This document shows, in pieces, positions 5,934-56,908 of a stretch of DNA of 64,000 nt. Both the position numbers and the translations under genes were made by a program. Numbering within the stretch: position 1 is the first letter of the stretch; every line of letters starts with the position of its first letter. Source of the stretch: Alphaproteobacteria bacterium (lineage in GTDB: Bacteria; Pseudomonadota; Alphaproteobacteria; GCA-2731375); NCBI GenBank assembly GCA_965232515.1, contig CBDDPY010000002.1, positions 4,096,001-4,160,000 of the forward strand, in the 5' to 3' direction. The notes beneath the pieces were generated by a model. The model was not told the origin of the DNA and did no database searches. It saw only the letters and a program-made list of their open reading frames with translations.

Positions 5934-8900
5934 TCAATGGACGATCATCATCCGAATATTGCGATTGGCAAGCGCCAGTTTCGAAATATCGAGGCCGCTG
6001 GCCTCGAAATCGTCCAACATCGTTGCACTGCGGGCGACCGCCGTCTCGTTCTGCGCACACCAGCCGGTGACCGCCTGCTCGCCGCCGGCGCCGTTCGCCG
6101 TGTCGAGCACGATGCGCGTCAGCGCCCGCTGCTGGCCGAACAGATCCTCGACAATGGCGGCGATCGCCGTGCGATCCCAATGGCTTTCGGCATGCAGCAT
6201 CTCCGCTTCGCTGCGCAGCCAATCGAGCCGCAAGCGCTCGCCAAGCACAAAATAGACCCAGCCCACGTCCTCGACCGGCCGGCCGGTGGCGCCGGCCACC
6301 TGCACGATGTCGCAAGCGGCGATCAACGGGTCCAGGCTGGCCACACGGCGGGCAAGATCCTTGGGCACGCCCTGATCGGCGTAGCGCTTGATCCGGACCG
6401 CGAGCGACTTCGCCTCGCGTTTACCCAGCATGGCGTCCAGTCCATCCATGATCTTGGCGATGCCGGGCTTGTATGTATTCAGCACGGTCGCGATGCGCAG
6501 CGGCTGCTCCATGTTGCGCAGCAGCCACATGGTCGTGCGGCGCAACAGGTTGACGCTTTGCAGCATCATCTCGATCTGCTGATCGGCGGGCACCTTGTTG
6601 TCGAGCGCCTCGATGCCATTCCACAGCCGCCGCATGTCGAAGGCGTCGCGCGCCACGGCATAGGCGCGGGCGATGGCGCCGGCATCGCAGCCGGTTTCCT
6701 GCTTGACGTCATGCACAAAGGTGACGCCGGTGCGGTTGACGATCGAGTTGGCCATCACCGTGGCGATAATCTCGGATCGCAGGCGATGCGACATGATCGC
6801 CGACTTGTATTGCTTGCGCAGCGGCCGGGGGAAGTACTTCACCAGATCGTTGGTCAGGTATTCGGATTCCGTCAGGTCGCTGTTCGCCAGCTCCTTGTCC
6901 AACACCATCTTGGCGTAGGCCAGCAGCACCGACAGCTCGGGCCGGGTCAGGCCCTGACCGACGGCGGACAGCTCCTGCACGGTATCGTCGTTCGGCAGGA
7001 ACTCGATCGCCCGGTCGAGCTGTCCGGCGCGCTCCAGCTCGCGCATGAAGCGGGCATGCGGCTCGAGCAGCGCAGGGCCCTGGCTCTCCAGCATGCTGAG
7101 CGCCTGGGTCTGCAGGTAATTGTCGCGCAGCACCAGATCGCCGACCTCGTCGGTCATCTCGGCCAAGAGGCGGTTGCGCTGCTTGCCGGTCATCTCGCCG
7201 TCGGCGACGATGGCGTCGATCAGGATCTTGATGTTGACCTCGTGGTCGGAACAGTCGACGCCGGCGGAATTGTCCACCGCGTCGGTGTTGACCCGGCCGC
7301 CGGCCTGAGCGAACTCAATGCGGCCGCGCTGGGTGCAGCCGAGATTGCCGCCCTCGCCGATTACCTTGCAGCGCAGCTCCGCGCCGTTCACCCGCAGCGG
7401 ATCGTTCGCCCGGTCGCCGACATCGTTGTTGTTCTCGTCGGCCGCCTTGACATACGTGCCGATGCCGCCGAACCAGAGCAGATCCGCATCGGCCTTGAGC
7501 AGCGCGCGCATCAGATCGTTCGGCGTCGCCCGCTCCTGCGACAGGCCGGTCAGCCGCTTGATCTCGGGCGTCAGCGTGATCGATTTCGCCTTGCGGTCGA
7601 AGACGCCGCCGCCCGCCGAGATCAGCTTCTCGTCATAGTCGAGCCATGAGGACCGCGGCAGACCGAACATCCGCTTGCGTTCCTTCCAGCTCTTGGCCGG
7701 GTGGGGATCGGGATCGATGAAGATGTGCCGGTGGTCGAAGGCCGCCAGCAGCCGGGTCTGCTTCGACAGCAGCATGCCGTTGCCGAACACGTCGCCCGAC
7801 ATGTCGCCGACGCCGACAACGGTGAAGTCCGCTTTCTGAATGTCGCGGCCGAGCTCGCGGAAATGGCGCTTGACCGACTCCCAGGCGCCTTTCGCCGTAA
7901 TGCCCATCTTCTTGTGGTCATAGCCGGCGGCGCCGCCCGAGGCGAAGGCATCGCCGAGCCAGAAGCCGTAGTCGATGGCGACCCCGTTGGCGATATCCGA
8001 GAACGTCGCCGTGCCCTTGTCGGCGGCGACGACGAGATAGGGATCGTCATCGTCGTAGCGCATGACGTCCGGCGGCGGCACCACCTCGCCGCCGGCCAGG
8101 TTGTCGGTAACGTCCAGCAGACCGCTGATGAAGGTCTTGTAGCAGGCGACGCCCTCGGCCATGAAGGCTTCGCGGTCGCCGCTTGCCGGCAACCGCTTGG
8201 GCACGAAGCCGCCCTTGCTGCCGACCGGCACGATGACGGCGTTCTTGACCATCTGCGCCTTCATCAAACCCAGTACCTCGGTGCGGAAGTCCTCACGCCG
8301 GTCGGACCAGCGCAGGCCGCCGCGGGCGACCTTGCCGCCGCGCAGATGCACGCCCTCGACGCGCGGCGAATAGACGAAGATCTCTCGGAACGGCCGCGGC
8401 AACGGCAGCTCGGCCACCGCCTGGCTGTCGAACTTCACCGACACATACGACCTCGGCTGACCGTCGTCGCCCGGCCGATAGAAGTTGGTGCGCAGAGTCG
8501 ACAGCACGAGATTGAGGAAGCGCCGCAGAATGCGGTCCTCGTCCAGGCTGACGACCTCGTCGAGCGCGAGCTCGATTTCGCCCGCCAAGGTCTCGGCCCG
8601 CTCGCCCCGCTGGCCCTCGAAATGGGGATCGAAGCGGGTGTGGAACAGCGCCACCAGCAGCCGAGTGATCTTGGGATTGCCGGCGAGCGTGTCCTCGACA
8701 TAGTCCTGGCTGAAGGTCATGCCGGCCTGGCGAAGGTACTTGGCATAGGCACGGATGATGACGACATCGCGCCAGCTCAGACCGGCCCGCATCACCAGCC
8801 GGTTGAAGCCGTCGTCCTCGACCTCGCCGCGCCAGACCTTGTCGAAGGCGTCCTCGAACTTCGCCTTCAGCTCGGCCAGGTCCAGCTCGGCCCCGGTCGG

Positions 8901-10790
8901 ATCCTCCATATGGAAGTCGTGGATCCAGATGTCGTCGGCGCCCTCGGGGTGGGCCAGGAACGGCTCCTCGCTAATCACTCTAAGGCCCATATGCTCGAGC
9001 ATGGGCAGGCAGTCCGACAGCGGTACCGCGGCGCCGGGATGATAGATCTTGAACCGCACCGCGTAGGCCGGATCCTCGATCGAGCAATAGAAGTTCAGCG
9101 CGACGTCGTCGGGTCCGTCGAGCGCCTCCATCTTCTCGATATCGTTCATCGCCAGATCGGCGTTGAAGGCTTCGTTATAGGAGGTCGGAAACGCCTCGCC
9201 ATATTTATGCGCCAGCCGGTTGCCGCCCTCCTCGCCCCAGCGCTCGATCAGCGCGTCGTAGAGATCGTCATGCCAGGAGCGGGCGGCGGCGATCAGCCGC
9301 GATTCGATCTGGGCGTAATCGACCGACTTCGGCGTCTTGCCCGGATCGGTGCCGATGACGTAATGCAGCCGCGCCAGTGGCGCGTCGCTGATCTGGGTGT
9401 AGAAGTTCGACAGCCGGCCGTTGAAGGCGTCGACCAGGATCTTGTCGAAGCGCCGGCGCAGCGTCGTGTTCCAGCGCTCGCGCGGAATGAAAACGATACA
9501 CGAGAAAAAGCGGTCGAACTTGTCCTGCCGGGCGAACAGGCGGATGCGCGGCCGTTCCGCCAAACCCAGAATGCCGGTCGAGATCTGGAACAGCGTGTCG
9601 ACATCGATCTGGAACAGCTCGTCGCGGGGATAGCTTTCCAGAATGTGGACCAGCGCCTTGCCGTCGTGGCTGGAGGGCTCGACGCGGGCGCGTTCCAATG
9701 TCTGCCGAACTTTCCGCCGCAGCAGCGGGATGTCGCGCGGCGTGCGGCTGTAGGCCGACGAGGTGAACAGGCCGATGAAGCGGCGTTCGCCCGTGAGCTT
9801 GCCCTTGGCGTCGTAACGCTTGATCGCCACGTAATCCATGTGCACCGGCCGGTGCACGGTGCCCCGCGCGCTGGTCTTCGAGATCAGCATCAATTCAGGC
9901 CGCTCGAGGAACTGCTGCAGGATCGGCGCCAGACCGCCGCGGCCCGCCGGCCCCACCATCACCGACCGCTCCGACAAGCGCAGCAGGCCCAGACCCGACC
10001 CCTCGACGATCTTCAGATCGTCCTTGCCGTTGCGCTTGCTCAGGCTGTAGTCGCGGCTGCCGAGGAAGGTGAAATGGTTGTCCCGCATCCAGGTCAGGAA
10101 GGCCTTTGTCTCCTCGACCTCTTCCTTTTCCAACGGCGGCGGCGTCTTGGTCAATTCGGCAATCGTGTCGTCAAGGCGCGCCAGGATCGGCTGCCAATCC
10201 TCCACCGCCGACCTGACGTCCTGCAGAACGCCTTTCAGGCCGGTTGCAATCTCGTCCAGAACCTTGGGATCCGACTGCTCGTCGATCTCAACGTGCATGA
10301 CGGATTCGGCGACCGCGCCGGCGTTCCGGCCATTGCCGTTCTTCTTGCCGTCGGTCTCGGCGATGCCGGTGCGGCGCCCGTTGGCGTCCCGGATCACGCG
10401 GATGATCGGATGGATCGTCAGATGAACGACATGACCGCGACGGGTGAGATAGCCGGTAATCGAGTCGACCAGGAACGGCATGTCGTCGTTGACGATCTCG
10501 ACGATCGTATGCGCCGACTTCCAGCCATGCGCCTCGACCCGAGGATTGTAGACCCGGACACGGGCTTCGCCCGATTTGCGCTGTTCGGCGAACTTCCAAA
10601 TCGCCAGCGCCGCGCCGTACAGGCTGTCGACGGGAAATTCGAGCACGTCTTCCGGCGCCAACCGCTCGTAGAACCTGGCCACGAATGTCTGAATATCGCC
10701 GGCATCTTTTGCGGCCATGCGACCGCGAACCTGGCCGATGACCTGTTCCAGTCGCTCGGCCTTCTCCTGATACGCGCGCATCGACTGCAT
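5934..10790 (-). CDS. Large (about 1600 aa) NAD-specific glutamate dehydrogenase (GDH2 type)
   Basis: DDMPFLVDS, GGLRWSDRREDFRTEVLGLMKAQMVKNAVIVPVGSKGGF, AADKGTATFSD, GYDHKKMGITA, DNSAGVDCSDHEVNIK. ATG 10790 chosen for its GAGGGA RBS. Confidence 0.96.
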   Translation of the reverse strand: MQSMRAYQEKAERLEQVIGQVRGRMAAKDAGDIQTFVARFYERLAPEDVLEFPVDSLYGAALAIWKFAEQRKSGEARVRVYNPRVEAHGWKSAHTIVEIVNDDMPFLVDSITGYLTRRGHVVHLTIHPIIRVIRDANGRRTGIAETDGKKNGNGRNAGAVAESVMHVEIDEQSDPKVLDEIATGLKGVLQDVRSAVEDWQPILARLDDTIAELTKTPPPLEKEEVEETKAFLTWMRDNHFTFLGSRDYSLSKRNGKDDLKIVEGSGLGLLRLSERSVMVGPAGRGGLAPILQQFLERPELMLISKTSARGTVHRPVHMDYVAIKRYDAKGKLTGERRFIGLFTSSAYSRTPRDIPLLRRKVRQTLERARVEPSSHDGKALVHILESYPRDELFQIDVDTLFQISTGILGLAERPRIRLFARQDKFDRFFSCIVFIPRERWNTTLRRRFDKILVDAFNGRLSNFYTQISDAPLARLHYVIGTDPGKTPKSVDYAQIESRLIAAARSWHDDLYDALIERWGEEGGNRLAHKYGEAFPTSYNEAFNADLAMNDIEKMEALDGPDDVALNFYCSIEDPAYAVRFKIYHPGAAVPLSDCLPMLEHMGLRVISEEPFLAHPEGADDIWIHDFHMEDPTGAELDLAELKAKFEDAFDKVWRGEVEDDGFNRLVMRAGLSWRDVVIIRAYAKYLRQAGMTFSQDYVEDTLAGNPKITRLLVALFHTRFDPHFEGQRGERAETLAGEIELALDEVVSLDEDRILRRFLNLVLSTLRTNFYRPGDDGQPRSYVSVKFDSQAVAELPLPRPFREIFVYSPRVEGVHLRGGKVARGGLRWSDRREDFRTEVLGLMKAQMVKNAVIVPVGSKGGFVPKRLPASGDREAFMAEGVACYKTFISGLLDVTDNLAGGEVVPPPDVMRYDDDDPYLVVAADKGTATFSDIANGVAIDYGFWLGDAFASGGAAGYDHKKMGITAKGAWESVKRHFRELGRDIQKADFTVVGVGDMSGDVFGNGMLLSKQTRLLAAFDHRHIFIDPDPHPAKSWKERKRMFGLPRSSWLDYDEKLISAGGGVFDRKAKSITLTPEIKRLTGLSQERATPNDLMRALLKADADLLWFGGIGTYVKAADENNNDVGDRANDPLRVNGAELRCKVIGEGGNLGCTQRGRIEFAQAGGRVNTDAVDNSAGVDCSDHEVNIKILIDAIVADGEMTGKQRNRLLAEMTDEVGDLVLRDNYLQTQALSMLESQGPALLEPHARFMRELERAGQLDRAIEFLPNDDTVQELSAVGQGLTRPELSVLLAYAKMVLDKELANSDLTESEYLTNDLVKYFPRPLRKQYKSAIMSHRLRSEIIATVMANSIVNRTGVTFVHDVKQETGCDAGAIARAYAVARDAFDMRRLWNGIEALDNKVPADQQIEMMLQSVNLLRRTTMWLLRNMEQPLRIATVLNTYKPGIAKIMDGLDAMLGKREAKSLAVRIKRYADQGVPKDLARRVASLDPLIAACDIVQVAGATGRPVEDVGWVYFVLGERLRLDWLRSEAEMLHAESHWDRTAIAAIVEDLFGQQRALTRIVLDTANGAGGEQAVTGWCAQNETAVARSATMLDDFEASGLDISKLALANRNIRMMIVH

Positions 10791-47809: not shown

Positions 47810-49120
47810 TCAGACCTGCTCGACCTGCTTGGCGAACAGTTCGCGGAAAGCCGGATAGATGTCACCGGGCTTGGCGATGCGCTTCATTTCGAAGTTCTGC
47901 CATTGCTCCTTCACGGTCCGATAGGCCTGCCACAAGGCCGCGCCGGACTCGGAATCGCCGAACAGGCCCATCTCGCGCTCGTCGATGATCTCGACATAGG
48001 TGAAGTACTGGCAGACCGGCATCAGCTCCTGATGCAGCAGGGCGACGCAACGTTCACTGTCGCCGGAGAAGTTCTCGCCGTCCGACGCCTGGGCGGCATA
48101 GATGTTCCAGGTGTCGGTCGGATAGCGGTCGGCGACGACCCCGGCCATCTCGCGCAACGCCGTGCTGACCACCGTGCCGCCGGTCTGCGGGCTGTAGAAG
48201 AAGGTTTCCTCGTCAACCTCGGAAGCTTCGTGCGTATGCCGGATGAAGACGACGTCGACATGCTCGTAGCGGCGCTTCAGGAACATGTGCAGCAGCACGA
48301 AGAAGCGCTTGGCCAGATCCTTTTCGCGCTGCCCCATGGAGCCGGAGACGTCCATCAGGCAGAACATGACGGCGTTGGTGTTCGGCTCGGGCCGTTGTTC
48401 GTTATAGCGGTAACGCACGTCGAACGGATCGATGAAGCCGACGACCTTGCGCCGCCGCTCGAGCCCCTCGAGCTCCTCGATCAGCGCTTTCAGCTTTTGC
48501 TCGTCCTCGTCGGTCCGGCCGGTCTTGGCCTCCAGCGCCGTAATCTGCCGGCGCAGGTCCTCGAGCGTCGAGTTCTTCGGCCGGGCCAGCGCGATTCGAC
48601 GCCCCAGGCTATTGCGCATGGTGCGCGCGACATCCAGGTTCGACGGGTTGCCGACCCGGCTGAAACCGGCACGATGACGCGTGAAAGAGACGATCTCCTT
48701 CAGCGTCGTCTTGACCAGGTTCGGCAGCTCCAGATCCTCGAAGAACAGATCCAGGAATTCCTCGCGCGACAGCGCGAACTGGAATTCGTCCTCGCCGTCG
48801 CCCTGGTCGGTGGCCTTCTTGCCGCCACCACCCTCGCCCTGTTGCGGCTTCGGGATGCGGTCGCCGGTCTCGAACTCCTTGTTGCCGGTGAACACCCGCT
48901 CGCGGATGCCGCCCTTGCTGCTGTGACTGAAGCGCGGCTCGCCGATGCCCTTGGTCGGGATCGTCACGGTCTCGCCACTGGCGACATCCGTGATCGAGCG
49001 GTCCCGCACCGACTTGTTGACGACCTCTTTGATCTGGGCGCGGGCCCGTCGGATAAAGCGCTGGCGGTTGCCCAGGCTTTTGCCCTTGGGATTTTGCCGC
49101 CGATCGATGAACTGGTGCAT
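47810..49120 (-). CDS. yeaH: YeaH/YhbH-family (DUF444) protein
   Basis: IDRRQNPKGKS..NRQRF, FCLMDVSGSM, GGTVVS, AQASDGEN. Confidence 0.95.
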   Translation of the reverse strand: MHQFIDRRQNPKGKSLGNRQRFIRRARAQIKEVVNKSVRDRSITDVASGETVTIPTKGIGEPRFSHSSKGGIRERVFTGNKEFETGDRIPKPQQGEGGGGKKATDQGDGEDEFQFALSREEFLDLFFEDLELPNLVKTTLKEIVSFTRHRAGFSRVGNPSNLDVARTMRNSLGRRIALARPKNSTLEDLRRQITALEAKTGRTDEDEQKLKALIEELEGLERRRKVVGFIDPFDVRYRYNEQRPEPNTNAVMFCLMDVSGSMGQREKDLAKRFFVLLHMFLKRRYEHVDVVFIRHTHEASEVDEETFFYSPQTGGTVVSTALREMAGVVADRYPTDTWNIYAAQASDGENFSGDSERCVALLHQELMPVCQYFTYVEIIDEREMGLFGDSESGAALWQAYRTVKEQWQNFEMKRIAKPGDIYPAFRELFAKQVEQV

Positions 49121-49135
49121 GGCCTCTGGCCGGGC

Positions 49136-51070
49136 TCAGCCCGCCTTATTCACGCGCATGTACCATTCGACGAGACGCCGGACCTGACGCTGGGTGTAGC
49201 CGCGCTCGACCAGACGCGAGACGAAGTCGTTGTGTTTCTTCTCCGTTTCGCTGTCCTTCTTCGAGCCGAAGCTGATCACCGGGAGCAGATCCTCGACCTG
49301 ACCGAACATCCGTTTCTCGATGACGTCGCGCAGCTTCTCGTAGCTGGTCCAGGACGGGTTCTTGCCGTCGTTCTGGGCCCGCGCACGCAGCACGAACTTC
49401 ACCACCTCGTTGCGGAAGTCCTTCGGATTGGCGATGCCGGCCGGCTTTTCGATTTTCGCCAGCTCGGCGTCCAGCACCTCGCGGTCGAACAGCTGACCGG
49501 TATCCGGATCCTTGTAGTCCTGCTCCTCGATCCAGGCATCGGCATAGGCGATGTAGCGGTCGAACAGGTTCTGCCCATACTCGGTATAGGATTCGAGGTA
49601 GGCCTTCTGGATCTCGTTGCCGATGAACTCGGCATACTTCGGCGCCAGGTCGGCCTTGATGAACTCGAGGTACTGGTCCTCTGTCTCGCGCGCGAACTGC
49701 TCGCGCTTGATCGCCTGCTCCAGCACATACATCAGATGCACCGGGTCGGCCGCGACCTCCTCGATGTCGTGGTTGAAGGTCTCGGACAGCACCTTGAAGG
49801 CGAACCGCGTGCTGACGCCGGTCATGCCTTCGTCGACGCCGGCCGCGTCGCGGTATTCCTGCATCGACTTGGCCTTCGGGCCAGTGTGCTTCAGGTTCTC
49901 GCCGTCATAGACCCGCATCTTGGCGTAGAGCGTCGAGTTCTCGTGCTCGCGCAGGCGCGTCAGCACGCTGAAGCGGCTCAGGATTTCGAGCGTTTCCGGC
50001 GCGCAGGGCGCGTCGCCGAGCTGACTTTCCCGCAACAGCTTGTGATAAATCTCGGCTTCCTCGGTGCCGCGCAGACAATAGGGCACCTTGACCACGGAAA
50101 TCCGGTCGAGGAAGGCCTCGTTGTTCTTGTTGCTCTTGAACTGCTGCCATTCGGCCTCATTCGAGTGCGCCAGGATGATGCCCTGGAACGGGAAGGCGCC
50201 AAAGCTCTCGGTGCCGAGATAATTGCCTTCCTGCGTGGCGGTCAGCAGCGGGTGCAGCACCTTGATCGGCGCCTTGAACATCTCGACGAATTCCAACAGT
50301 CCTTGAGTCGTTCGGTTCAGGCCGCCGGAGAAGCTGTAGGCGTCGGGGTCGTTCTGGCTGAAATGCTCGAGCTTGCGGATGTCGAGCTTGCCAACCAGGG
50401 CGGAGATGTCCTGGTTGTTTTCGTCGCCGGGTTCCGTCTTGGCGACGCCGACCTGACGCAGCTTCGACGGCATCATCTTGACGACGGCGAACTTCGAGAT
50501 ATCGCCGTCGAATTCGTCCAGGCGCTTGACCGCCCAGGGCGACATCAAGCCATTTAACCGGCGCCGCGCGATACCGTACTTGTCTTCAAGCAGATCGCCC
50601 ATGCGCGCCGGATCGAACAGACCGAGCGGCGATTCGAACACCGGGCTGACCTGATCGCCGGCTTTCAACACGTAGATCGGGTTCTTTTCCATCAGCAGCT
50701 TCAGACGCTCGGCCAGCGTCGATTTGCCGCCGCCCACGGGGCCGAGCAGATAAAGCACCTGCTTGCGCTCTTCGAGGCCCTGCGCGGCATGCTGGAAGTA
50801 GCCGACGATCCGCTCGATCGTCTGCTCCATGCCGTAGAAGCCGCTGAATGCGGGATAGCGCTTGATGGTTCTATTGAGGAAAATGCGGCCCAATCGCGAG
50901 TCCGAACTGGTGTCGATCAGTTCAGGTTCGCCGATGGCGTCGATCATGCGTTCCGCCGCCGAGGCGTACATCAGGGGGTGGTCGCGGCACCCGAGCAGAT
51001 AGTCGTGCAGACTCATCTCCTCGGAGGCTTCACGCTGATAATTTTCCGAATATGCTTCGAAAACGTTCAT
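49136..51070 (-). CDS. prkA: PrkA/YeaG-family AAA serine protein kinase
   Basis: LLGPVGGGKS, EPGDENNQDIS, EFVEMFKAPIKVLHPLL, VRRLVEWY. Confidence 0.96.
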   Translation of the reverse strand: MNVFEAYSENYQREASEEMSLHDYLLGCRDHPLMYASAAERMIDAIGEPELIDTSSDSRLGRIFLNRTIKRYPAFSGFYGMEQTIERIVGYFQHAAQGLEERKQVLYLLGPVGGGKSTLAERLKLLMEKNPIYVLKAGDQVSPVFESPLGLFDPARMGDLLEDKYGIARRRLNGLMSPWAVKRLDEFDGDISKFAVVKMMPSKLRQVGVAKTEPGDENNQDISALVGKLDIRKLEHFSQNDPDAYSFSGGLNRTTQGLLEFVEMFKAPIKVLHPLLTATQEGNYLGTESFGAFPFQGIILAHSNEAEWQQFKSNKNNEAFLDRISVVKVPYCLRGTEEAEIYHKLLRESQLGDAPCAPETLEILSRFSVLTRLREHENSTLYAKMRVYDGENLKHTGPKAKSMQEYRDAAGVDEGMTGVSTRFAFKVLSETFNHDIEEVAADPVHLMYVLEQAIKREQFARETEDQYLEFIKADLAPKYAEFIGNEIQKAYLESYTEYGQNLFDRYIAYADAWIEEQDYKDPDTGQLFDREVLDAELAKIEKPAGIANPKDFRNEVVKFVLRARAQNDGKNPSWTSYEKLRDVIEKRMFGQVEDLLPVISFGSKKDSETEKKHNDFVSRLVERGYTQRQVRRLVEWYMRVNKAG

Positions 51071-51707
51071 GACCGTCCTCCATCAATGGGTGAACGGGTC
51101 GATCGCCAAACTACGGCCGCGCAAAGCATTGCAAATATGTCCTCTTCAGCCTCTCGTTCCTCGCTCTTCCTCCCCCGGTGTCCCAAGTTGTGCATTTGCC
51201 AATTCTTGGCTTATGTCACCCTGCTTTTGTTTGACCCTTCTTAAATGTAGCGTCTCATTGGAACACGGCTACCCTGGTCCATTCAAATTTTCATCACGCA
51301 TTAGCGGTCGGTTGTGCGCCAACCAAGGCGGCGCGCCAATCGCAACCGAAAGATGCAGAGAAAGATTTGACGCACGAAATCAACGGGTTGATCCGCCGGT
51401 CTTGAGGCGGCGTCGAACGCCGGATTGACTCGACCGTCGCGGCGACGTGCAGGCGTCGGCGTGTAATCAATTCGTCATCATTGCAAGCATGCAACACACA
51501 ATCGCGGTGATTCGCCGTCTGGCGCTGGGTTTCGTTGGCGCGCGACGAATTTTCTGCTGCAACGATCTTGGCTGTTTGGGGATGCGAACCGGCGGTGATA
51601 TCTCGCCGCGCGCCGTCATCGGCATCGAGCCGCGGCGCGTCGTGTCGAGATATGTCGTCTGCGTATCGCATTTTTTCCCTAGCCAATGAAGTGTCGTGCC
51701 GGAGTGC

Positions 51708-51726: not shown

Positions 51727-51899
51727 GTCACTAAATTCGAGAATATGATCGCCAACGCGTAGATGTGATGCGTCAACCGCCGTCCTAACAATTACGCGGC
51801 ACTGTCGATGTCGATCCGAAAAAGTCGACATCGATCGCAAGTGAAGCAGGACAATTTGGGAGGTCCGGGCGGCGATCAGATGGCGGGGATTTGCGTTCG

Positions 51900-53216
51900 A
51901 TGAAACATCAGCGCCCGGAAGATCTGCGGCCCGAGATCGCGCTGCTGCTGGCCTGCGCCCGAAGTACCTACGACGACGACGCCAGGGCGCGTATTGCCGG
52001 CCTGTTGCGAACCCCGCCGGACTGGACCTACCTGGTGCAAACCGCGATCGATCACGGCGTTTCGCCGCTGTTGTGTCGGGCCATGCTGCAGGTATTTCCC
52101 GATGCCGTGCCTGATGATGTGCGGGCGGCCGCAGGAACGCATCTCGACGATAATGACGCCGACAACCGTTCGCGTACATCTGAGCTGTTGCGCATCCTTG
52201 CGGCGCTGGCGCAACGGAACATTCCGGCCATTCCGTTCAAAGGCCCGGCCGTGGCCGAACGGATCTACGGCGACTTGTCGCTGCGGCGGTTTCGCGATCT
52301 GGACTTCTTGCTTCGCGAATCCGACATCGACGCCGCGCTCGACGTGCTGCGGCAACTGGATTATCCGACCGAGACCGGCTTCGTCTCGGCGCGCGATCCA
52401 GCCTTTCGCCTGACTCCGGCGCAAACCCAAGCGTTCCGCGACTATGCCGGCGAGTACATCTTCTACAAACGCGACCAAAGCGTGGTGATCGAGCCGCACT
52501 GGCATTTCGCGCCCGCCACCTTGAGCGTCGACATCGACTATACGGCGTTGTGGCGCCGGACGTTCGATGCCGACCTGGCCGGCGCAACAGTCCGCACGCT
52601 GACGCCCGAAGACGAATTGCTGGTGCTTTGCGTCCACGGCTCGAAGGAAATCTGGACGCGCCTGCAATGGATCTGTGACGTCGCCGAACTGATCCGCGCC
52701 TATCCCGGCCTCAATTGGGTCGCAACGCTGCAGCGGGCCGAACGGCAGGGCTGCGAGCGCATGCTGTTGCTGGGACTGTCGCTGGCGCATCGGTTGCTGC
52801 AGGCGCCGTTGCCGCCGACGGTGCGCAAGCTGACCGAGCAAGCGGCCGTAAACGTGCTGGTGCGGGATGTCGAACGCGCGCTGTTCGCCGACCGCGACGC
52901 GCCGACGTCGATCTATTCGGTGTCACTGTTCCGGGTTCGGATGCGCGAAAGACTGCGCGATCGTTGGCGTTACGTCTGGCGCACGATCACCACGCCGCGC
53001 ATTCAGCATTTCGAGATGGTCGCCTTGCCGGATGCGTTGTTCTTCGGCTACGTGCCGGTCAAGCTCGTACACGACTATGTGCTGCTGCCGCTCTGGCTGC
53101 TGGCCAAGCGGGTGCGCGCGGCCATCCTGTCGACCGCAAATCGACCCGTGCAGGAACCGGTGGCCGACCGGACGCCGCCGCCGCGTGACGGCCGACGTCC
53201 GGTTAAACCAACCTAA
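51900..53216 (+). CDS. Nucleotidyltransferase, NTP_transf_5 family (type found in lasso-peptide and HPr-rel clusters)
   Basis: DWTYL...AIDHGV.PL; FKGP..A..IYGD..LRRFRDLDFL (DxD); IEPHW; LCVHGSKE.W.RLQWICDV. Confidence 0.9.
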   Translation: MKHQRPEDLRPEIALLLACARSTYDDDARARIAGLLRTPPDWTYLVQTAIDHGVSPLLCRAMLQVFPDAVPDDVRAAAGTHLDDNDADNRSRTSELLRILAALAQRNIPAIPFKGPAVAERIYGDLSLRRFRDLDFLLRESDIDAALDVLRQLDYPTETGFVSARDPAFRLTPAQTQAFRDYAGEYIFYKRDQSVVIEPHWHFAPATLSVDIDYTALWRRTFDADLAGATVRTLTPEDELLVLCVHGSKEIWTRLQWICDVAELIRAYPGLNWVATLQRAERQGCERMLLLGLSLAHRLLQAPLPPTVRKLTEQAAVNVLVRDVERALFADRDAPTSIYSVSLFRVRMRERLRDRWRYVWRTITTPRIQHFEMVALPDALFFGYVPVKLVHDYVLLPLWLLAKRVRAAILSTANRPVQEPVADRTPPPRDGRRPVKPT

Positions 53217-53223
53217 CGCGGCG

Positions 53224-53403
53224 TCAGACCTGACCGTTTTGGCCGTACGGCACCGTGGCCGTGCCGGCCGCGGCCTGCTTGGCCTTGGCCGAAAGCAGCA
53301 ACGCGACAGCCGGTGCCGTCGCCGCGGCGACGCCTGCCTTTTTCAGGAATTTCCGACGGTCGCTGTCATGCGACGTCTCGGGGGTCTTTTTGCTGTCCGA
53401 CAT
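53224..53403 (-). CDS. 59-aa twin-arginine-leader peptide, putative RiPP precursor
   Basis: GAGGAG RBS; MSDSKKTPETSHDSDRRKFLKKAGVAAATAPAVALLLSAKAKQAAA-GTATVPYGQNGQV; dedicated sigma54 promoter. Confidence 0.8.
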   Translation of the reverse strand: MSDSKKTPETSHDSDRRKFLKKAGVAAATAPAVALLLSAKAKQAAAGTATVPYGQNGQV

Positions 53404-53532
53404 AACGTTCTCCTCACCATTACTTTTGTTGTTTTGGCTTCTCGGCAATACGCGCCAAAAAAACGCTGCACGATCCGATTGCAAGGTCCAGCACAGCTCC
53501 AAACCAAACCCAACAACATCAAGTACTGAAAC

Positions 53533-53548
53533 AGCAATTTCCGTGCCA
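53533..53548 (-). promoter_or_regulatory. sigma54 (-24/-12) promoter of the peptide gene
   Basis: TGGCACG-GAAA-TTGCT: exact consensus with the obligatory GG-N10-GC spacing. Confidence 0.85.
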
Positions 53549-53600
53549 ATACAATTAACCTCAAAAATGCCGGATTTCTGGATTTTGGCAAAGGTGCGAC

Positions 53601-53636
53601 TGTAAAGAATTCCGACAATCGTCGGTATTCTTTACA
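53601..53636. promoter_or_regulatory. Inverted repeat: candidate enhancer-binding-protein site and/or terminator
   Basis: TGTAAAGAATTCCGAC-aatc-GTCGGTATTCTTTACA (15/16 pairs), about 80-115 bp upstream of the predicted start site; overlaps the GMC stop codon. Confidence 0.65.
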
Positions 53637-55179
53637 TGGCGTCGCGATTCAGATGTTCAGCAAGGCGAAGCGCGAGCGCCACCAACGTCAGCGTCGGATT
53701 TGAGCAGCCTGCGGTCGGAAACACGGCACTGCCCGCGACATAAAGGTTGCCGATACCATGCACGCGGCAGTTCGCATCGACCACGCCCTGCCGCGGGTCA
53801 TCATGCATTCGCAAGGTGCCGATGTGGTGGCCGCTGTTGACCGAGCGGCGCAACCAGGTTTCGCTGCTGACATCGACCTGCACCCGACCCGTGCCGGTTC
53901 GGCCCGCCTCGAGGCCGATAAGTTCGTGGGTCCGGCGAATGCTCCGGACCTCACGCTCGCCCAAACGCCAATCGACCCGCGCCTGGCGCAGGCCGAGGCT
54001 GTCTCGGGTATCGGCAAGCGTGACACGGTTGTCCGGGTTCGGCGCCGGCTCGACGCGGCTGTGGAAGTTAAGGAAACCGACGGGCGGGCGGCCGCCGACG
54101 ACTTTGCGGAACAACGCGCGCCCGACACCGTCAATATCGCCGGCGACATTGCGGACATGCGCGCCCAGATCTTCGGGCAGGCTGCCGTCGCCAACGGCGT
54201 CGACGATCGATTTCAACGACGCCACGCCGGCGGAGCGCTGGCCGACGGCCTGCAGCACGACGGTGATGTTGAGCAGCTCCTCCCGGCGTTGTACGCCGGC
54301 CGGCAGGATCAAGATGCCGTGGAACCTGCGATCGACGTCGTAGGCGCGCACGGCCATATCCGGGTCGCTCGGCGCCATGCGGCTTGAGGCCAGCAGCCGA
54401 TGGTCGGTGAAGAAGCGCCCGACGAGATCGCCGCCGTTGCCGAGACCGCCACGCCGGCGCCGGTCCGACAACAGCATCAACCGCGCGTTCTCGATGGCGC
54501 CACAGGCCAGGACGTAGCGATGGCCGGTCACCCGGAAACCGATGCCGGAAAGCGTGGCGCACCGCAGTCCGGTCGCCCGCGCGGCCGTGTCATCGGTCTC
54601 GATCTCGACGACGTTGGCGTGCAGATAGACCGTCACGTTGTCGGCGCGAACCAGATCTTCCCGATAGGCCTGGCCGAAGCGCGTCGGCGGACCCCGCCGA
54701 TAGATCCCGGTCTGAATTCGCGCCGGATCGAACGGCAACGGCGCATCGTCATCCTGGCCGGGCCAGGAGGAATTGCCGTAATCGAATGAACCGGTCTCGC
54801 AGATCGCTTCGGCGCGCCGATAGTAGGGAACCAGCGCGTCGCGGCCGAACGGCCAACCGCTATGCGGCACCCAGGGACGCGCCTCGAAATCGATCTCGTC
54901 AAAGGGACGGCAATTGCCTTCCCAATGGTTGGTGCTGCCGCCGAAGTAGCGCAGGCGGGTGGCGTCCAGCGGATCGTATCTGTCATCGACGACCTCGCCG
55001 GCATAGAGTGCCTGGGTCTCGGCCGCGAACTCGAAGCCGCCGCTTTCCAGCACGACCACGCGATGCCGGGTGCCGGCCAGTTCACGGGCGATACTGATCC
55101 CGGCCGCGCCCGCGCCGACGACAACGATATCGGCATCGATGATGGTGCCCGCCGGCAGGCTGCGCGCGTCGAGGATCAA
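53632..55179 (-). CDS. GMC-family FAD-dependent oxidoreductase
   Basis: VVGAGAAG, FGGSTNHW, LACGAIENARL, VGRFFTDH, HHIGTLRM, GVVDANCRVHG, SNPTLT; TTG start abuts the upstream TAG. Confidence 0.92.
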   Translation of the reverse strand: MILDARSLPAGTIIDADIVVVGAGAAGISIARELAGTRHRVVVLESGGFEFAAETQALYAGEVVDDRYDPLDATRLRYFGGSTNHWEGNCRPFDEIDFEARPWVPHSGWPFGRDALVPYYRRAEAICETGSFDYGNSSWPGQDDDAPLPFDPARIQTGIYRRGPPTRFGQAYREDLVRADNVTVYLHANVVEIETDDTAARATGLRCATLSGIGFRVTGHRYVLACGAIENARLMLLSDRRRRGGLGNGGDLVGRFFTDHRLLASSRMAPSDPDMAVRAYDVDRRFHGILILPAGVQRREELLNITVVLQAVGQRSAGVASLKSIVDAVGDGSLPEDLGAHVRNVAGDIDGVGRALFRKVVGGRPPVGFLNFHSRVEPAPNPDNRVTLADTRDSLGLRQARVDWRLGEREVRSIRRTHELIGLEAGRTGTGRVQVDVSSETWLRRSVNSGHHIGTLRMHDDPRQGVVDANCRVHGIGNLYVAGSAVFPTAGCSNPTLTLVALALRLAEHLNRDAM

Positions 55180-56361
55180 CTACTCGAGCGCCCGGATCAG
55201 CGCAACGGCGTCGTCGAGAGACGACATCGGCAGCGCATAACACTCGACGCCGGCGGCCCAATCGACCATCGCCTTGACGCGCTCGACGTTCAGCGGCGCC
55301 GGGATCGCCAAGCACTCGTCCATCATCCGGTGCAGGGCGGCCACCTTGCCGATCGGTTCCAACGCCGTTTCGGCATCGGCCGCATAGCGCGGGAAGATCA
55401 GGCGACGCACGGGCTGCGCCGCATTTGACGTGGGCCGCATGTCGGCCGGCGGCGACAGGTATCGCACGACCTTGCCGTCCCCGCGGTGGTGCGTTTTCAA
55501 GTCGGCGAGTTCGGGATAATAGGGCGTCATCAGATCCCAGCCCTCGCGCTTGAAGCACATCGACAGCGGCACGGGCACGGCCTGGAACGTGGATTCCGAC
55601 AGCAGCGCGACTTCGTCGGAGAAGTACTTGAACCCTGCGCGGCAGAGCGCGGCCGTCAGCGACGACTTGCCGCTGCCGGGCGCGGCGGGCAGCAGCGTGC
55701 AGGCCCGACCGTCACTGACCACGCCGGCGTGGATATTCAAAAAGTAGTCGGCGCCGCGCAGTGACAGCTGCCAAATCAAGCCCTTCACGATCGGCGCCAG
55801 TTGGTCGTAACGCGCGCAGCGGCAAAACGGTGATTGGTCGAGATAGATCAGATGCCCGTCGCGGGTCGCCACGATGTCGACCAAGCTGTCGGCCGGCGCA
55901 GTCGCAACGGCGAGATGCGCGATCGCCGTATGGACCCATTCGATCTGCGCCGGCTCGTTGCAACGCACCTCGACGCGATGATCCAGCAGCGCATAGTGCC
56001 GGCGCTCGGCGCTTGGCACGGCCGCGAACGGCGGCAGGCCGCCATCCGCTTCGAGCGCCGGCGGCGCGGGCACTTCCGGCTCGCGTGGATTGGCGCCCTG
56101 CAACAGACCCAGCGTGCGCCACTGCGCCAGGATATCGGCCACATGCCGTTCGGCCTCGCTGTCGGCGAAGCCGAACGTCGCCGACATCGCCGTCGCGATC
56201 GCCGCCGGTGAGACGCCTTCCTCCAACTGGCACCAAACATAGGTCGCCGTCGTGTTGAGCGCGTAGATCTCCTGCGCCGCGTCGGCGTAGAGCAGCCCTT
56301 CATCACCGAGGATGAAGAGATGCACGTCGTCGCCTGGTCGAACCGCCGCGGTCACGGGCAC
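55180..56361 (-). CDS. PqqD/RRE domain fused to an HPr-kinase-related P-loop kinase
   Basis: N-terminal GDEGLLY...IYALNTTATYVW..L...IA..M...F...A...V...L.....GLL (PqqD fold); C-terminal IHAGVV, PGSGKSSL, YFSDEVALL, LIFPRY. GTG 56361 follows GGGAG. Confidence 0.88.
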   Translation of the reverse strand: MPVTAAVRPGDDVHLFILGDEGLLYADAAQEIYALNTTATYVWCQLEEGVSPAAIATAMSATFGFADSEAERHVADILAQWRTLGLLQGANPREPEVPAPPALEADGGLPPFAAVPSAERRHYALLDHRVEVRCNEPAQIEWVHTAIAHLAVATAPADSLVDIVATRDGHLIYLDQSPFCRCARYDQLAPIVKGLIWQLSLRGADYFLNIHAGVVSDGRACTLLPAAPGSGKSSLTAALCRAGFKYFSDEVALLSESTFQAVPVPLSMCFKREGWDLMTPYYPELADLKTHHRGDGKVVRYLSPPADMRPTSNAAQPVRRLIFPRYAADAETALEPIGKVAALHRMMDECLAIPAPLNVERVKAMVDWAAGVECYALPMSSLDDAVALIRALE

Positions 56362-56572
56362 GCTCCCGCCATTTCTTGGTTTTTCGCTCCGGCCCAACCT
56401 AATAGGCCGGAGAAGCTTGTAAATAGGCTAACGGCCGAGCCATTCGGCGCGGTGGCGACAAACGCAATCGTGATTTGGTCCGGCGCGACACGATCGGAAA
56501 AGATATCGCTCAGGCGGGGCCGGGCGAAGGTGGCGGCGGCATGTCCGTTGCGACCGTAGATGGGACCTGATC

Positions 56573-56908
56573 ATGAGAGCTTGGAAATTCTCGCCTGTCA
56601 TCCTCATGGCCCTTGCCCCGTTCGGCGACGGCGCGCTCGCGACCGGCGACCGCGATGCGCGGGCCTGTCTCGACGCCAGCCGATCGCACGTCGAGCGGCT
56701 GCCAGTACAAAGCGGCGACGTCACCGGCGTCACCATTGTCCCGCGCTTGGATCTGCATCGCGAGGGCCCGTATCTGGTCGGCTACGAAGCCTATGTCAGG
56801 CTGCAATCGTGCACCGGCTCACTGGTCCTTAACCTGAACGAGGACTGCAGCTTCCGCGACGCCTACACCCGTGGCGCCTGCAAGATCCAGGGCCTGCCGG
56901 ATTACTGA
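56573..56908 (+). CDS. Small secreted protein with 4 Cys
   Basis: Signal peptide ending ALA; YVRLQSC.GSLVL.L.EDC....YTRGAC.I.GL. Confidence 0.7.
   Translation: MRAWKFSPVILMALAPFGDGALATGDRDARACLDASRSHVERLPVQSGDVTGVTIVPRLDLHREGPYLVGYEAYVRLQSCTGSLVLNLNEDCSFRDAYTRGACKIQGLPDY

Follow-up and report, generated by a model that had tools for sequence, protein, structure and literature searches.

A gene for a short twin-arginine signal peptide, linked to PqqD-kinase and nucleotidyltransferase genes, as a candidate precursor of a modified and exported peptide in Alphaproteobacteria

We analyzed a 64,000-nucleotide stretch of an alphaproteobacterial genome (assembly GCA_965232515.1, contig CBDDPY010000002.1, positions 4,096,001 to 4,160,000; the whole stretch is referred to here as the window). 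At 53224..53403 on the minus strand it contains a gene for a 59-residue peptide, most of which is a twin-arginine translocation (Tat) signal. We read this peptide as a precursor of the type that gives rise to peptides made on the ribosome and modified after translation (RiPPs), in which the Tat signal would double as the leader recognized by the modifying enzymes. Modification would take place in the cytoplasm, to be followed by Tat export and cleavage by signal peptidase; we put the probability of this reading at roughly 0.6. Four lines of evidence speak for it: the peptide belongs to a family, its leader and tail differ in conservation, related peptides share gene neighborhoods, and an interface between the leader and one of the neighboring enzymes is predicted by structural modeling.

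The gene has 59 codons and a stop codon (53224-53226). Its ATG, at 53403, is preceded by the Shine-Dalgarno sequence GAGGAG (53410..53415, minus strand) at a spacing of 6 nt. The full product is MSDSKKTPETSHDSDRRKFLKKAGVAAATAPAVALLLSAKAKQAAAGTATVPYGQNGQV. Residues 1 to 46 (53266..53403, minus strand) make up the Tat-type signal, which we read as the leader. It is composed of a polar n-region of 15 residues, the motif D-R-R-K-F-L-K-K (residues 15 to 22, with the arginine pair at 16-17), a weakly hydrophobic h-region at residues 23 to 38 (AGVAAATAPAVALLLS), and the c-region AKAKQAAA, which contains the basic residues K40 and K42 and ends in QAAA (43-46). Residues 47 to 59 (53227..53265, minus strand), GTATVPYGQNGQV, form a variable tail and putative core with 2 Thr, 1 Tyr, and a C-terminal Val, in which Y53-G54 occupies the position of the Ser/Tyr-Gly pair of the family. 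Several of these elements had been pointed out in an earlier note on this DNA, which described a strong ribosome-binding site, a Tat consensus, an h-region, the QAAA site, and the 13-residue tail with its 2 Thr and 1 Tyr; all are present. The same note held that the mechanical open reading frame (ORF) list makes the gene too long, and we agree: the listed frame starts at a TTG at 53502, 99 nt upstream of the ATG, and gives 92 aa, whereas the three closest homologues (P0002 to P0004; 59 to 62 aa) start with MSD, which supports the 59-residue reading.

The window peptide passes the NCBIfam model TIGR01409 (TAT_signal_seq) marginally, with 17.6 bits where 16.7 are required (E = 0.0035), and a Pfam scan of the peptide returned 0 families. 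TatC is encoded in the same genome (241.9 bits). Cleavage is placed putatively after A46 by the AxA rule and the family alignment, and A39-K40-A41 may be an alternative AxA site. A further model, TIGR02811 (formate dehydrogenase region TAT target), aligned with the signal region only. Its score of 18.7 bits is far under the cut-off of 48.45, and membership of the window peptide in TIGR02811 was rejected on this basis.

The first relatives of the window peptide, eight short sequences, came from a word-based search, and a profile was then built from nine peptides. Among 1.84 billion representative proteins, 850 matched this profile at E ≤ 1e-3, of which 111 reached E ≤ 1e-10. Lengths in the best 150 family members ran from 49 to 156 aa (median, 68), with 138 at or below 100 aa and 7 above 110 aa. 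The earlier note had reasoned that homologues continuing into a long domain would make the gene a truncated remnant; because the homologues stay short, the window peptide is no remnant. Some longer forms do occur. P0055 (149 aa) and P0091 (142 aa) are fusions in which a Peptidase_S74 domain (a self-cleaving intramolecular chaperone) comes after a short tail, P0111 has an N-terminal extension, and P0035 and P0121 share another C-terminal extension, to which a Pfam scan of P0121 assigned no family. No curated NCBIfam family was found for 90 members scanned singly. At E ≤ 0.01, TAT_signal_seq matched 34 of these 90 and TIGR02811 matched 51, the latter weakly and under its cut-off. In the protein atlas the family appears only as unnamed clusters of 50- to 71-aa proteins.

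Named records with relatives come from Alphaproteobacteria and from one Acidobacteriota assembly. In a set of 401 genomes of the same class, 15 had a match to the peptide profile at E ≤ 1e-5, a count that includes one weak match in genome G134, where the 623-aa frame around it probably encodes an ordinary Tat protein. In another sample of 401 genomes, all listed ones being of the same class, 5 had the peptide at E ≤ 1e-8. Tandem copies with different tails are found in several places: three copies each in G267, on contig 61 of G120, and at locus L026, five at L032, and two each in G218, G293, and G289. Genome G152 carries three divergent tandem peptide genes, with tails of 4 to 5 residues, just upstream of a kinase gene. 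The two tandem genes of the alphaproteobacterial genome G218 (locus L067, identical with L015; 7995-8404) lie between an IS110-type and an rve-type transposase gene and may be a mobile or orphaned copy.

These data bear on the explanation that there is no gene here, and that the frame is a chance ORF or the decayed N terminus of a longer Tat substrate. The frame is indeed short and has no Pfam family. Against this stand the strong ribosome site, 850 related clusters of similarly short length, the tandem arrays, the occurrence of relatives in both Alphaproteobacteria and Acidobacteriota, and the conserved neighbors described below, and we find the explanation barely credible. The window peptide gene and its family are almost certainly real.

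Conservation was expressed as mean pairwise identity in an alignment of 90 family sequences, using the numbering of the window peptide. Identity was 0.173 in the n-region (residues 1 to 15), 0.705 in the RR motif and h-region (residues 16 to 38), 0.42 in the c-region (residues 39 to 46), and 0.138 in the tail (residues 47 to 59). R16, R17, F19, and P31 are invariant in the 90 sequences. Within the twin-arginine motif, the L is present in 0.97 and the K in 0.81 of them. The c-region often has a basic residue, with K at position 42 in 0.68 of the sequences. In a set of 210 non-redundant members, 199 have an AxA site past the h-region. The tails, by comparison with the leader, are diverse and include short Ser-Gly/Tyr-Gly, Cys-rich, His/Gly-rich, and Lys/Arg-rich forms as well as Gly-Ser repeats. 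Their lengths (median, 19) are rough, because, where two AxA sites are present, the simple cleavage rule used sometimes takes the earlier one, the window peptide being such a case. The only recurrent tail feature of the family is a Ser-Gly or Tyr-Gly pair, seen as Y53-G54 in the window peptide. This pair was found within the first 15 tail residues of 119 of the 210 members, compared with a mean of 48.5 (standard deviation, 5.3; maximum, 61) in 500 shuffles within each tail. A C-terminal Ser was present in 30 of the 210 tails.

To describe the gene neighborhoods, the ORFs of 39 loci were clustered all against all, and neighbors within 5 kb were counted with profiles at 40 loci; L015, being the same place as L067, was left out of the locus counts. 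Two families dominate. One is a fusion of a PqqD domain, which is a RiPP recognition element (RRE), with an HprK-related P-loop kinase (PqqD-kinase), and the other is the NTP_transf_5 (PF14907) nucleotidyltransferase family. A third and smaller family is MbnB/TglH/ChrH (MNIO). PqqD-kinase genes were present at 22/40 loci, NTP_transf_5 genes at 17/40, and at least one of the two at 24/40. When the count was restricted to the 12 loci whose flanks extend for 3 kb or more in each direction, each of these three counts was 8/12. The corresponding values were 5/40 and 1/12 for MNIO and 3/40 and 3/12 for GMC-family oxidoreductases. One of the loci, L081, had been chosen via its kinase; without it the counts are 21/39 for the kinase, 16/39 for NTP_transf_5, and 23/39 for either. 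In five loci (L017 [8211-9521], L027, L034, L035, and L037), the MNIO gene comes after the peptide gene and the tails are Gly-Ser- or Cys-rich; in L034, L035, and L037 it is followed by a gene for a longer PqqD-kinase (~470 to 530 aa). A sub-family represented by L071, L072, L073, L076, and L078 has the diverged leader RRxFLAxCGKFAxxTPP and, which is unusual, the conserved tail motif GNNGFGNGGGDGxPGxSG. Kinase and NTP_transf_5 genes adjoin in L071, L073, and L076 and do not in L072 and L078.

Co-occurrence was also seen at the level of whole genomes. A kinase profile run on the 401 genomes used for the peptide gave 12 matches at E ≤ 1e-50, and 10 of the 12 also had the peptide. The two genes were no more than ~2.5 kb apart in at least 8 of these 10 genomes, and G152 is an 11th genome with both. 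Ten of the 12 kinase matches span nearly the whole fusion, and the other two, in G266 and in G419 (where a contig end truncates the match), have later starts; a kinase match of any kind was present in 31/401 genomes, G262 among them. No dedicated protease or transporter family recurs among the recurrent neighbors, as would be expected if export and cleavage relied on the general Tat pore and signal peptidase.

A simpler explanation would be that the peptide is not modified at all and is a small Tat-exported or membrane-retained product, the enzymes acting elsewhere and the PqqD domain serving only as a chaperone or regulator. In its favor, 16 of the 40 loci have neither enzyme in reach, though many of their contigs are short, and the family has the weak likeness to TIGR02811 noted above, far under the cut-off of that model as this is. 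However, the fusion of an RRE to the kinase, the tight adjacency of the genes, their co-occurrence in 10 of 12 cases, and the passing interface model presented below all point to the peptide as the substrate, and we regard an unmodified peptide as unlikely.

In the window, the PqqD-kinase is encoded at 55180..56397 on the minus strand (405 aa from a TTG; the database version is 391 aa long, and its start would be at 56355). It matched PF05402 at 2.3e-9, TIGR04352 at 7.3e-30 (104 bits against a cut-off of 200), and TIGR04353 with 19.7 bits (cut-off, 35). Its P-loop, G-S-G-K, and D247/E248 are invariant in 52 aligned kinase sequences. The NTP_transf_5 nucleotidyltransferase (441 aa; PF14907 at 1.8e-57) is encoded on the plus strand at 51891..53216. 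Its gene and the peptide gene are convergent, with 7 bp separating their stop codons. The structure model of the nucleotidyltransferase reached a predicted local distance difference test (pLDDT) score of 84.9 and a predicted template modeling (pTM) score of 0.84. The structures nearest to this model in a Foldseek search were ANT(2'')-Ia, LnuA, and MenT1 (target TM score of ~0.6; E = 2e-3 to 3e-2), a likeness to nucleotidyltransferases that is weak because no match was obtained at E ≤ 0.001. With that limit, the model bears a weak resemblance to Pol-beta-type enzymes, which load a nucleotide onto a hydroxyl. Sequence searches of solved structures with the kinase and with NTP_transf_5 gave 0 matches each.

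The window cluster is patchy among kin, since a full-length PqqD-kinase was not found in 40 close relatives of the genome, where other matches cover the kinase half only. One truncated match, in G012 (query 18-388, 27% identity), extends into the PqqD portion. Outside the window, its genome also encodes a second HprK-related kinase (L014, G000:C2:6232588-6233226), which consists of the kinase half only (query 190-404, 31% identity) and is without a PqqD domain; kinase-only genes of this type are present in ~19 other genomes of the 401.

The third enzyme of the window cluster is a 515-aa GMC-family flavin adenine dinucleotide (FAD) oxidoreductase encoded at 53632..55179 on the minus strand, with a start that abuts the kinase stop. 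It is without a signal peptide, as its FAD-binding motif begins at residue 17. Among solved structures, it comes closest to the catalytic subunits of glucose dehydrogenase (8hdd and 6a2u; E ~5e-25) and fructose dehydrogenase (7w2j; E = 1.7e-19), in a match that spans only the C-terminal ~140 residues, and pyranose oxidases are also among its near relatives. A match to MftG, the mycofactocin dehydrogenase, stays under threshold (58.6 bits; cut-off, 387). At another locus, L066, a signal-less GMC gene likewise adjoins the kinase and peptide genes in the same position. The two GMC proteins match only weakly and locally (38 bits over 88 residues), and the presence of an unrelated GMC in the same position hints at a real accessory role. 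We read the window GMC as an accessory and not as a core component.

The earlier note had offered, as an alternative, that the peptide carries this enzyme through Tat. In such an arrangement the 59-aa protein would be a Tat hitchhiking partner for the signal-less GMC, with the kinase and nucleotidyltransferase having either no relation to it or a regulatory role. FAD glucose and fructose dehydrogenases have catalytic subunits that leave the cytoplasm together with small subunits bearing a Tat signal, and the window GMC, whose best solved relatives are such catalytic subunits, is encoded directly upstream of the peptide gene in the same orientation, as another signal-less GMC is beside the kinase and peptide genes of L066. 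The window peptide resembles those small subunits in placing a Tat signal on a small partner beside a signal-less GMC-type enzyme. It differs from them in having no Pfam domain, hence no small-subunit fold, and a mature part of 13 residues, which offers little surface for a stable complex. Moreover, GMC genes occur at 3/40 loci compared with 22 for the kinase and 17 for NTP_transf_5, the window and L066 enzymes are only weakly alike, the match to solved dehydrogenases is confined to the C-terminal part of the GMC, and the conservation of the h-region is accounted for by the predicted PqqD contact. Piggy-backing of the GMC is therefore not the logic of the family. It has a real precedent and may conceivably apply at the window locus alone, but as an explanation of the peptide we give it a very low probability.

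The GMC also figures in a reading of the peptide as the precursor of a small cofactor or signal like pyrroloquinoline quinone (PQQ) or mycofactocin, in which nothing but the Ser/Tyr-Gly pair would matter and the GMC would be the partner dehydrogenase. PQQ and mycofactocin are derived from Tyr-containing peptide ends. The Ser/Tyr-Gly pair, found in 119/210 members, is the sole conserved feature of the tail, tails can be as short as 1 to 8 residues, a PqqD-type domain is present, and the window GMC has its sub-threshold likeness to MftG. On the other side, neither the window cluster nor the recurrent neighbors include a radical-SAM or cross-linking enzyme, GMC genes are rare (3/40 loci), and hypervariable tail classes with tandem copies that differ from one another are typical of diversified peptides rather than of one cofactor. 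These observations make a cofactor precursor quite improbable.

In order to examine contact between the kinase and the leader, a complex was modeled from the 391-aa form of the kinase (52-row alignment) and the peptide (90-row alignment), together with three controls, none of which was another Tat signal. The kinase-peptide pair scored 0.78, and the best control scored 0.00. The pass mark is reached by 58/80 solved complexes and by 2/110 mismatched pairs, counts that apply only roughly in the present case since our own alignments were used. At least 75% of contacts were common to three runs, and the partner pLDDT was at least 63. The contacts of least predicted error pair kinase residues 28 to 37 with peptide residues 31 to 38 in antiparallel register. 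The Pfam PqqD match covers kinase residues 26 to 85 (391-aa numbering), so that the contacting residues 28 to 37 lie inside it. Predicted PqqD contacts on the peptide extend from residue 12 to residue 47, with R16 and K18-L20 also touching. The interface holds kinase residues N34 and A37, which are invariant, and peptide residues P31, A32, A34, L35, and L36, which are invariant or nearly so. The predicted contact of a PqqD strand with the h-region would explain the strong conservation of the latter, and the model, as a prediction, supports the putative binding of the leader by the RRE domain of the kinase.

These results bear on the central proposal of the earlier note, namely that the peptide is modified in the cytoplasm and that its RR motif serves both as the RRE recognition site and as the export signal. 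At the level of the family, the neighbors, the 10/12 co-occurrence, and the complex model agree with a leader that plays both parts. The place of recognition is revised, since the least-error contacts fall on h-region residues 31 to 38 and not on the arginine pair.

On the reading we prefer, the PqqD (RRE) domain of the kinase would grip the h-region of the signal in the cytoplasm as an added beta-strand, and the bound signal would be held back from the Tat translocase in the manner of TorD- and DmsD-type chaperones. Tat export is post-translational and tolerates short hydrophilic cargo. Because it could also be gated by a protein that binds the signal, there would be time for cytoplasmic chemistry, and a reason for a 13-mer cargo. 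The kinase and NTP_transf_5 would then act on a hydroxyl of the tail, most likely that of Tyr53 in the conserved Ser/Tyr-Gly pair, to give a phospho-, nucleotidyl-, or phosphoglycosyl-peptide. At the window locus the GMC oxidoreductase may further oxidize the appended group; as its relatives are sugar dehydrogenases and pyranose oxidases, this group could be a sugar. The released precursor would be exported by Tat, and signal peptidase I would cut past A44-A45-A46, freeing the modified 13-mer in the periplasm.

By analogy with the tailoring of lasso peptides, we propose that the conserved pair would be O-phosphorylated at its Ser/Tyr and would then receive a nucleotidyl or glycosyl group. In lasso peptides, the linear precursor is phosphorylated at a Ser hydroxyl by homologues of HPr kinase, and hexoses are attached to this phosphate by a nucleotidyltransferase (reviewed in PMC8498205). 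Lasso systems of this kind, such as those of paeninodin and pseudomycoidin, resemble the window cluster at the level of enzyme type, in having an HprK-like kinase and a nucleotidyltransferase beside the precursor gene (PMC8498205). They differ from it in that the window cluster is without a lasso cyclase and leader protease, its RRE is fused to the kinase, its leader is a Tat signal, and its peptide ends in Val. The four genes of the window cluster encode the peptide, the GMC, the PqqD-kinase, and NTP_transf_5, and its identity as a lasso cluster was rejected accordingly; the C-terminal Ser rule of lasso kinases was likewise rejected for the window peptide on account of its C-terminal Val.

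Several points weigh against this interpretation. Modification, export, and cleavage are all inferred steps, and the same applies to binding in the cell, the chemistry, the residue modified, and the role of the GMC. The score of the complex expresses the confidence of a model. Part of the pass may reflect likeness to solved RRE-leader complexes, of which there are examples among solved structures, and tail residues 48 to 59 are not placed at the kinase active site (P-loop) in the model. Tyr would be an unusual target for a P-loop HprK-type kinase, and the lasso precedent uses a C-terminal Ser where the window peptide ends in Val. The high identity of the leader (0.705 for the RR motif and h-region) is partly built in, because the 90 sequences were chosen with a leader-based profile; the low identity of the tail is not. 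Tandem copies in L077, L079 (51-933), and L081 (1206-2084) have tails of 1 to 8 residues past the AxA site (for example, TSAG, SV, or R); these would leave next to no cargo for release and are awkward to square with a classical core peptide. Four of the 12 well-flanked loci (L067, L069, L072, and L078) are without both the kinase and NTP_transf_5; in G218, the genome of L067, no kinase was detected genome-wide at E ≤ 1e-20, and neither a kinase nor NTP_transf_5 is encoded near L067. The loci are not independent, as several come from G120 and G204 and some are near-identical (L023/L024 and L034/L035/L037). The earlier note expected paralogues in this genome that keep the leader and vary in the core. 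Such copies are represented by the tandem arrays of other genomes; in the genome of the window the search returned only the gene itself at E < 0.01, weaker matches (E ≥ 0.03) being the signal regions of longer proteins. Lastly, contigs from three RNA-seq libraries of a strain 95 to 99% alike covered the region in 30/30 bins at a summed word depth of ~0.4 to 8, with pieces reaching 52820-53284 and 53455-53837. Contigs of this kind, here of low depth, cannot prove a transcript, its strand, or its level, and DNA carry-over is possible; no conclusion was based on them.

Between the GMC gene and the peptide gene is a 228-bp spacer with a reduced G+C content (53404..53631, minus strand). Directly 3' of the GMC stop it contains a short, G+C-rich hairpin (53612-53625) with a T-rich tail on both strands; this weak, terminator-like element may make the peptide gene partly independent of the upstream operon. 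The promoter and terminator scan found no sigma-70-like site on the peptide gene strand. Two Rfam matches in 53000-53900, both far under their gathering scores, were dismissed. The G+C profile dips at the spacers 51000-51600 and 53400-54000 and gives no clear island signature. Divergent from the kinase gene is a 111-aa ORF (56573-56908, plus strand) with a hydrophobic, signal-like N terminus, four Cys, and coding-like third-position G+C; it had no Pfam family and did not recur in the other loci. Just upstream of the cluster, at 47810-51070 on the minus strand, an ordinary conserved pair encodes the 644-aa serine protein kinase PrkA (PF08298 and PF06798) and then a DUF444 protein (436 aa).

The system can be compared with others in which a kinase, a PqqD-type protein, or a signal-binding protein takes part. 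The HPr-rel-A system (TIGR04352/TIGR04353) likewise combines an HprK-related kinase with a PqqD-type chaperone, but in the window protein the two parts are fused. Since the window kinase scored under the cut-offs of both models, we regard it as related to that system but separate from it, and to our knowledge no Tat-type peptide features in the description of HPr-rel-A. The Tat proofreading chaperones TorD, DmsD, and NapD bind the signal peptides of their own substrates and delay export until maturation. The predicted binding of a Tat signal by a cytoplasmic protein is similar here, whereas those chaperones have another fold and their cargo is cofactor-containing enzymes; the binder in the window cluster would be an RRE fused to a modifying enzyme.

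Among RiPPs that use housekeeping signals, bufferins are the closest comparison. They are MNIO-modified RiPPs whose precursor has a Sec signal peptide that is dispensable for modification (PMC11626156). Bufferins and, as proposed here, the present family share cytoplasmic modification, the use of a general export pathway and signal peptidase in place of a dedicated protease and transporter, and a periplasmic product (PMC11626156), and MNIO genes also occur in 5/40 of our loci. The bufferin signal is of the Sec type, whereas the peptides studied here have a Tat signal whose h-region is the predicted recognition element; bufferins have folded domains of 60 to 70 residues as opposed to tails of 1 to 50 residues; and the core enzymes here would be the PqqD-kinase fusion and NTP_transf_5 (PMC11626156). 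DAG-RiPPs and chryseobasin-type precursors similarly co-opt a housekeeping signal-peptide pathway but have signals of the Sec type for signal peptidase II (SPII) or signal peptidase I (SPI), MNIO chemistry on a C-terminal CPACGMG, and leader-independent recognition (PMC13056109). In the literature outside subscription journals and supplements, as far as its text was accessible, we found nothing relevant on natural Tat-leader RiPPs. The word "Tat" is absent from the main text of PMC11626156, PMC13056109, and PMC12452194, of which the supplementary figures of the first two might list signal types; the last of the three, on the MNIO landscape, also has neither "kinase" nor "PqqD" in its main text. 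In the same literature, PF14907 turned up in two papers, one of them on phosphonates.

We rate as new the use of a Tat signal as an enzyme-read leader together with a fused RRE-kinase as core enzyme; RiPP-type systems that use housekeeping signals were already known. A bolder version of our interpretation would make these peptides the first natural RiPP class with a Tat-signal leader. In that version, reading of the h-region by the RRE-kinase would act as the export gate, the Tat pore and signal peptidase would replace a dedicated transporter and protease, and the products would be periplasmic O-phospho-, nucleotidyl-, or glycosyl-peptides of ~4 to 30 residues, the variant in the window being oxidized by the GMC. 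This is a tentative proposal, on which we would not place even odds.

If our reading is correct, it would add a large unannotated family of precursors, comprising 850 representative clusters with no Pfam or NCBIfam model, and Tat would join Sec/SPI and the lipoprotein/SPII route among the housekeeping pathways used in RiPP maturation. Two orphan families, of PqqD-fused HprK-like kinases and of NTP_transf_5 (PF14907) enzymes, for which we know of no substrate outside the tailoring of lasso peptides, would also gain one. The carriage of a 13-mer by Tat would have a concrete reason, and the invariant leader could be used as a handle for genome mining.

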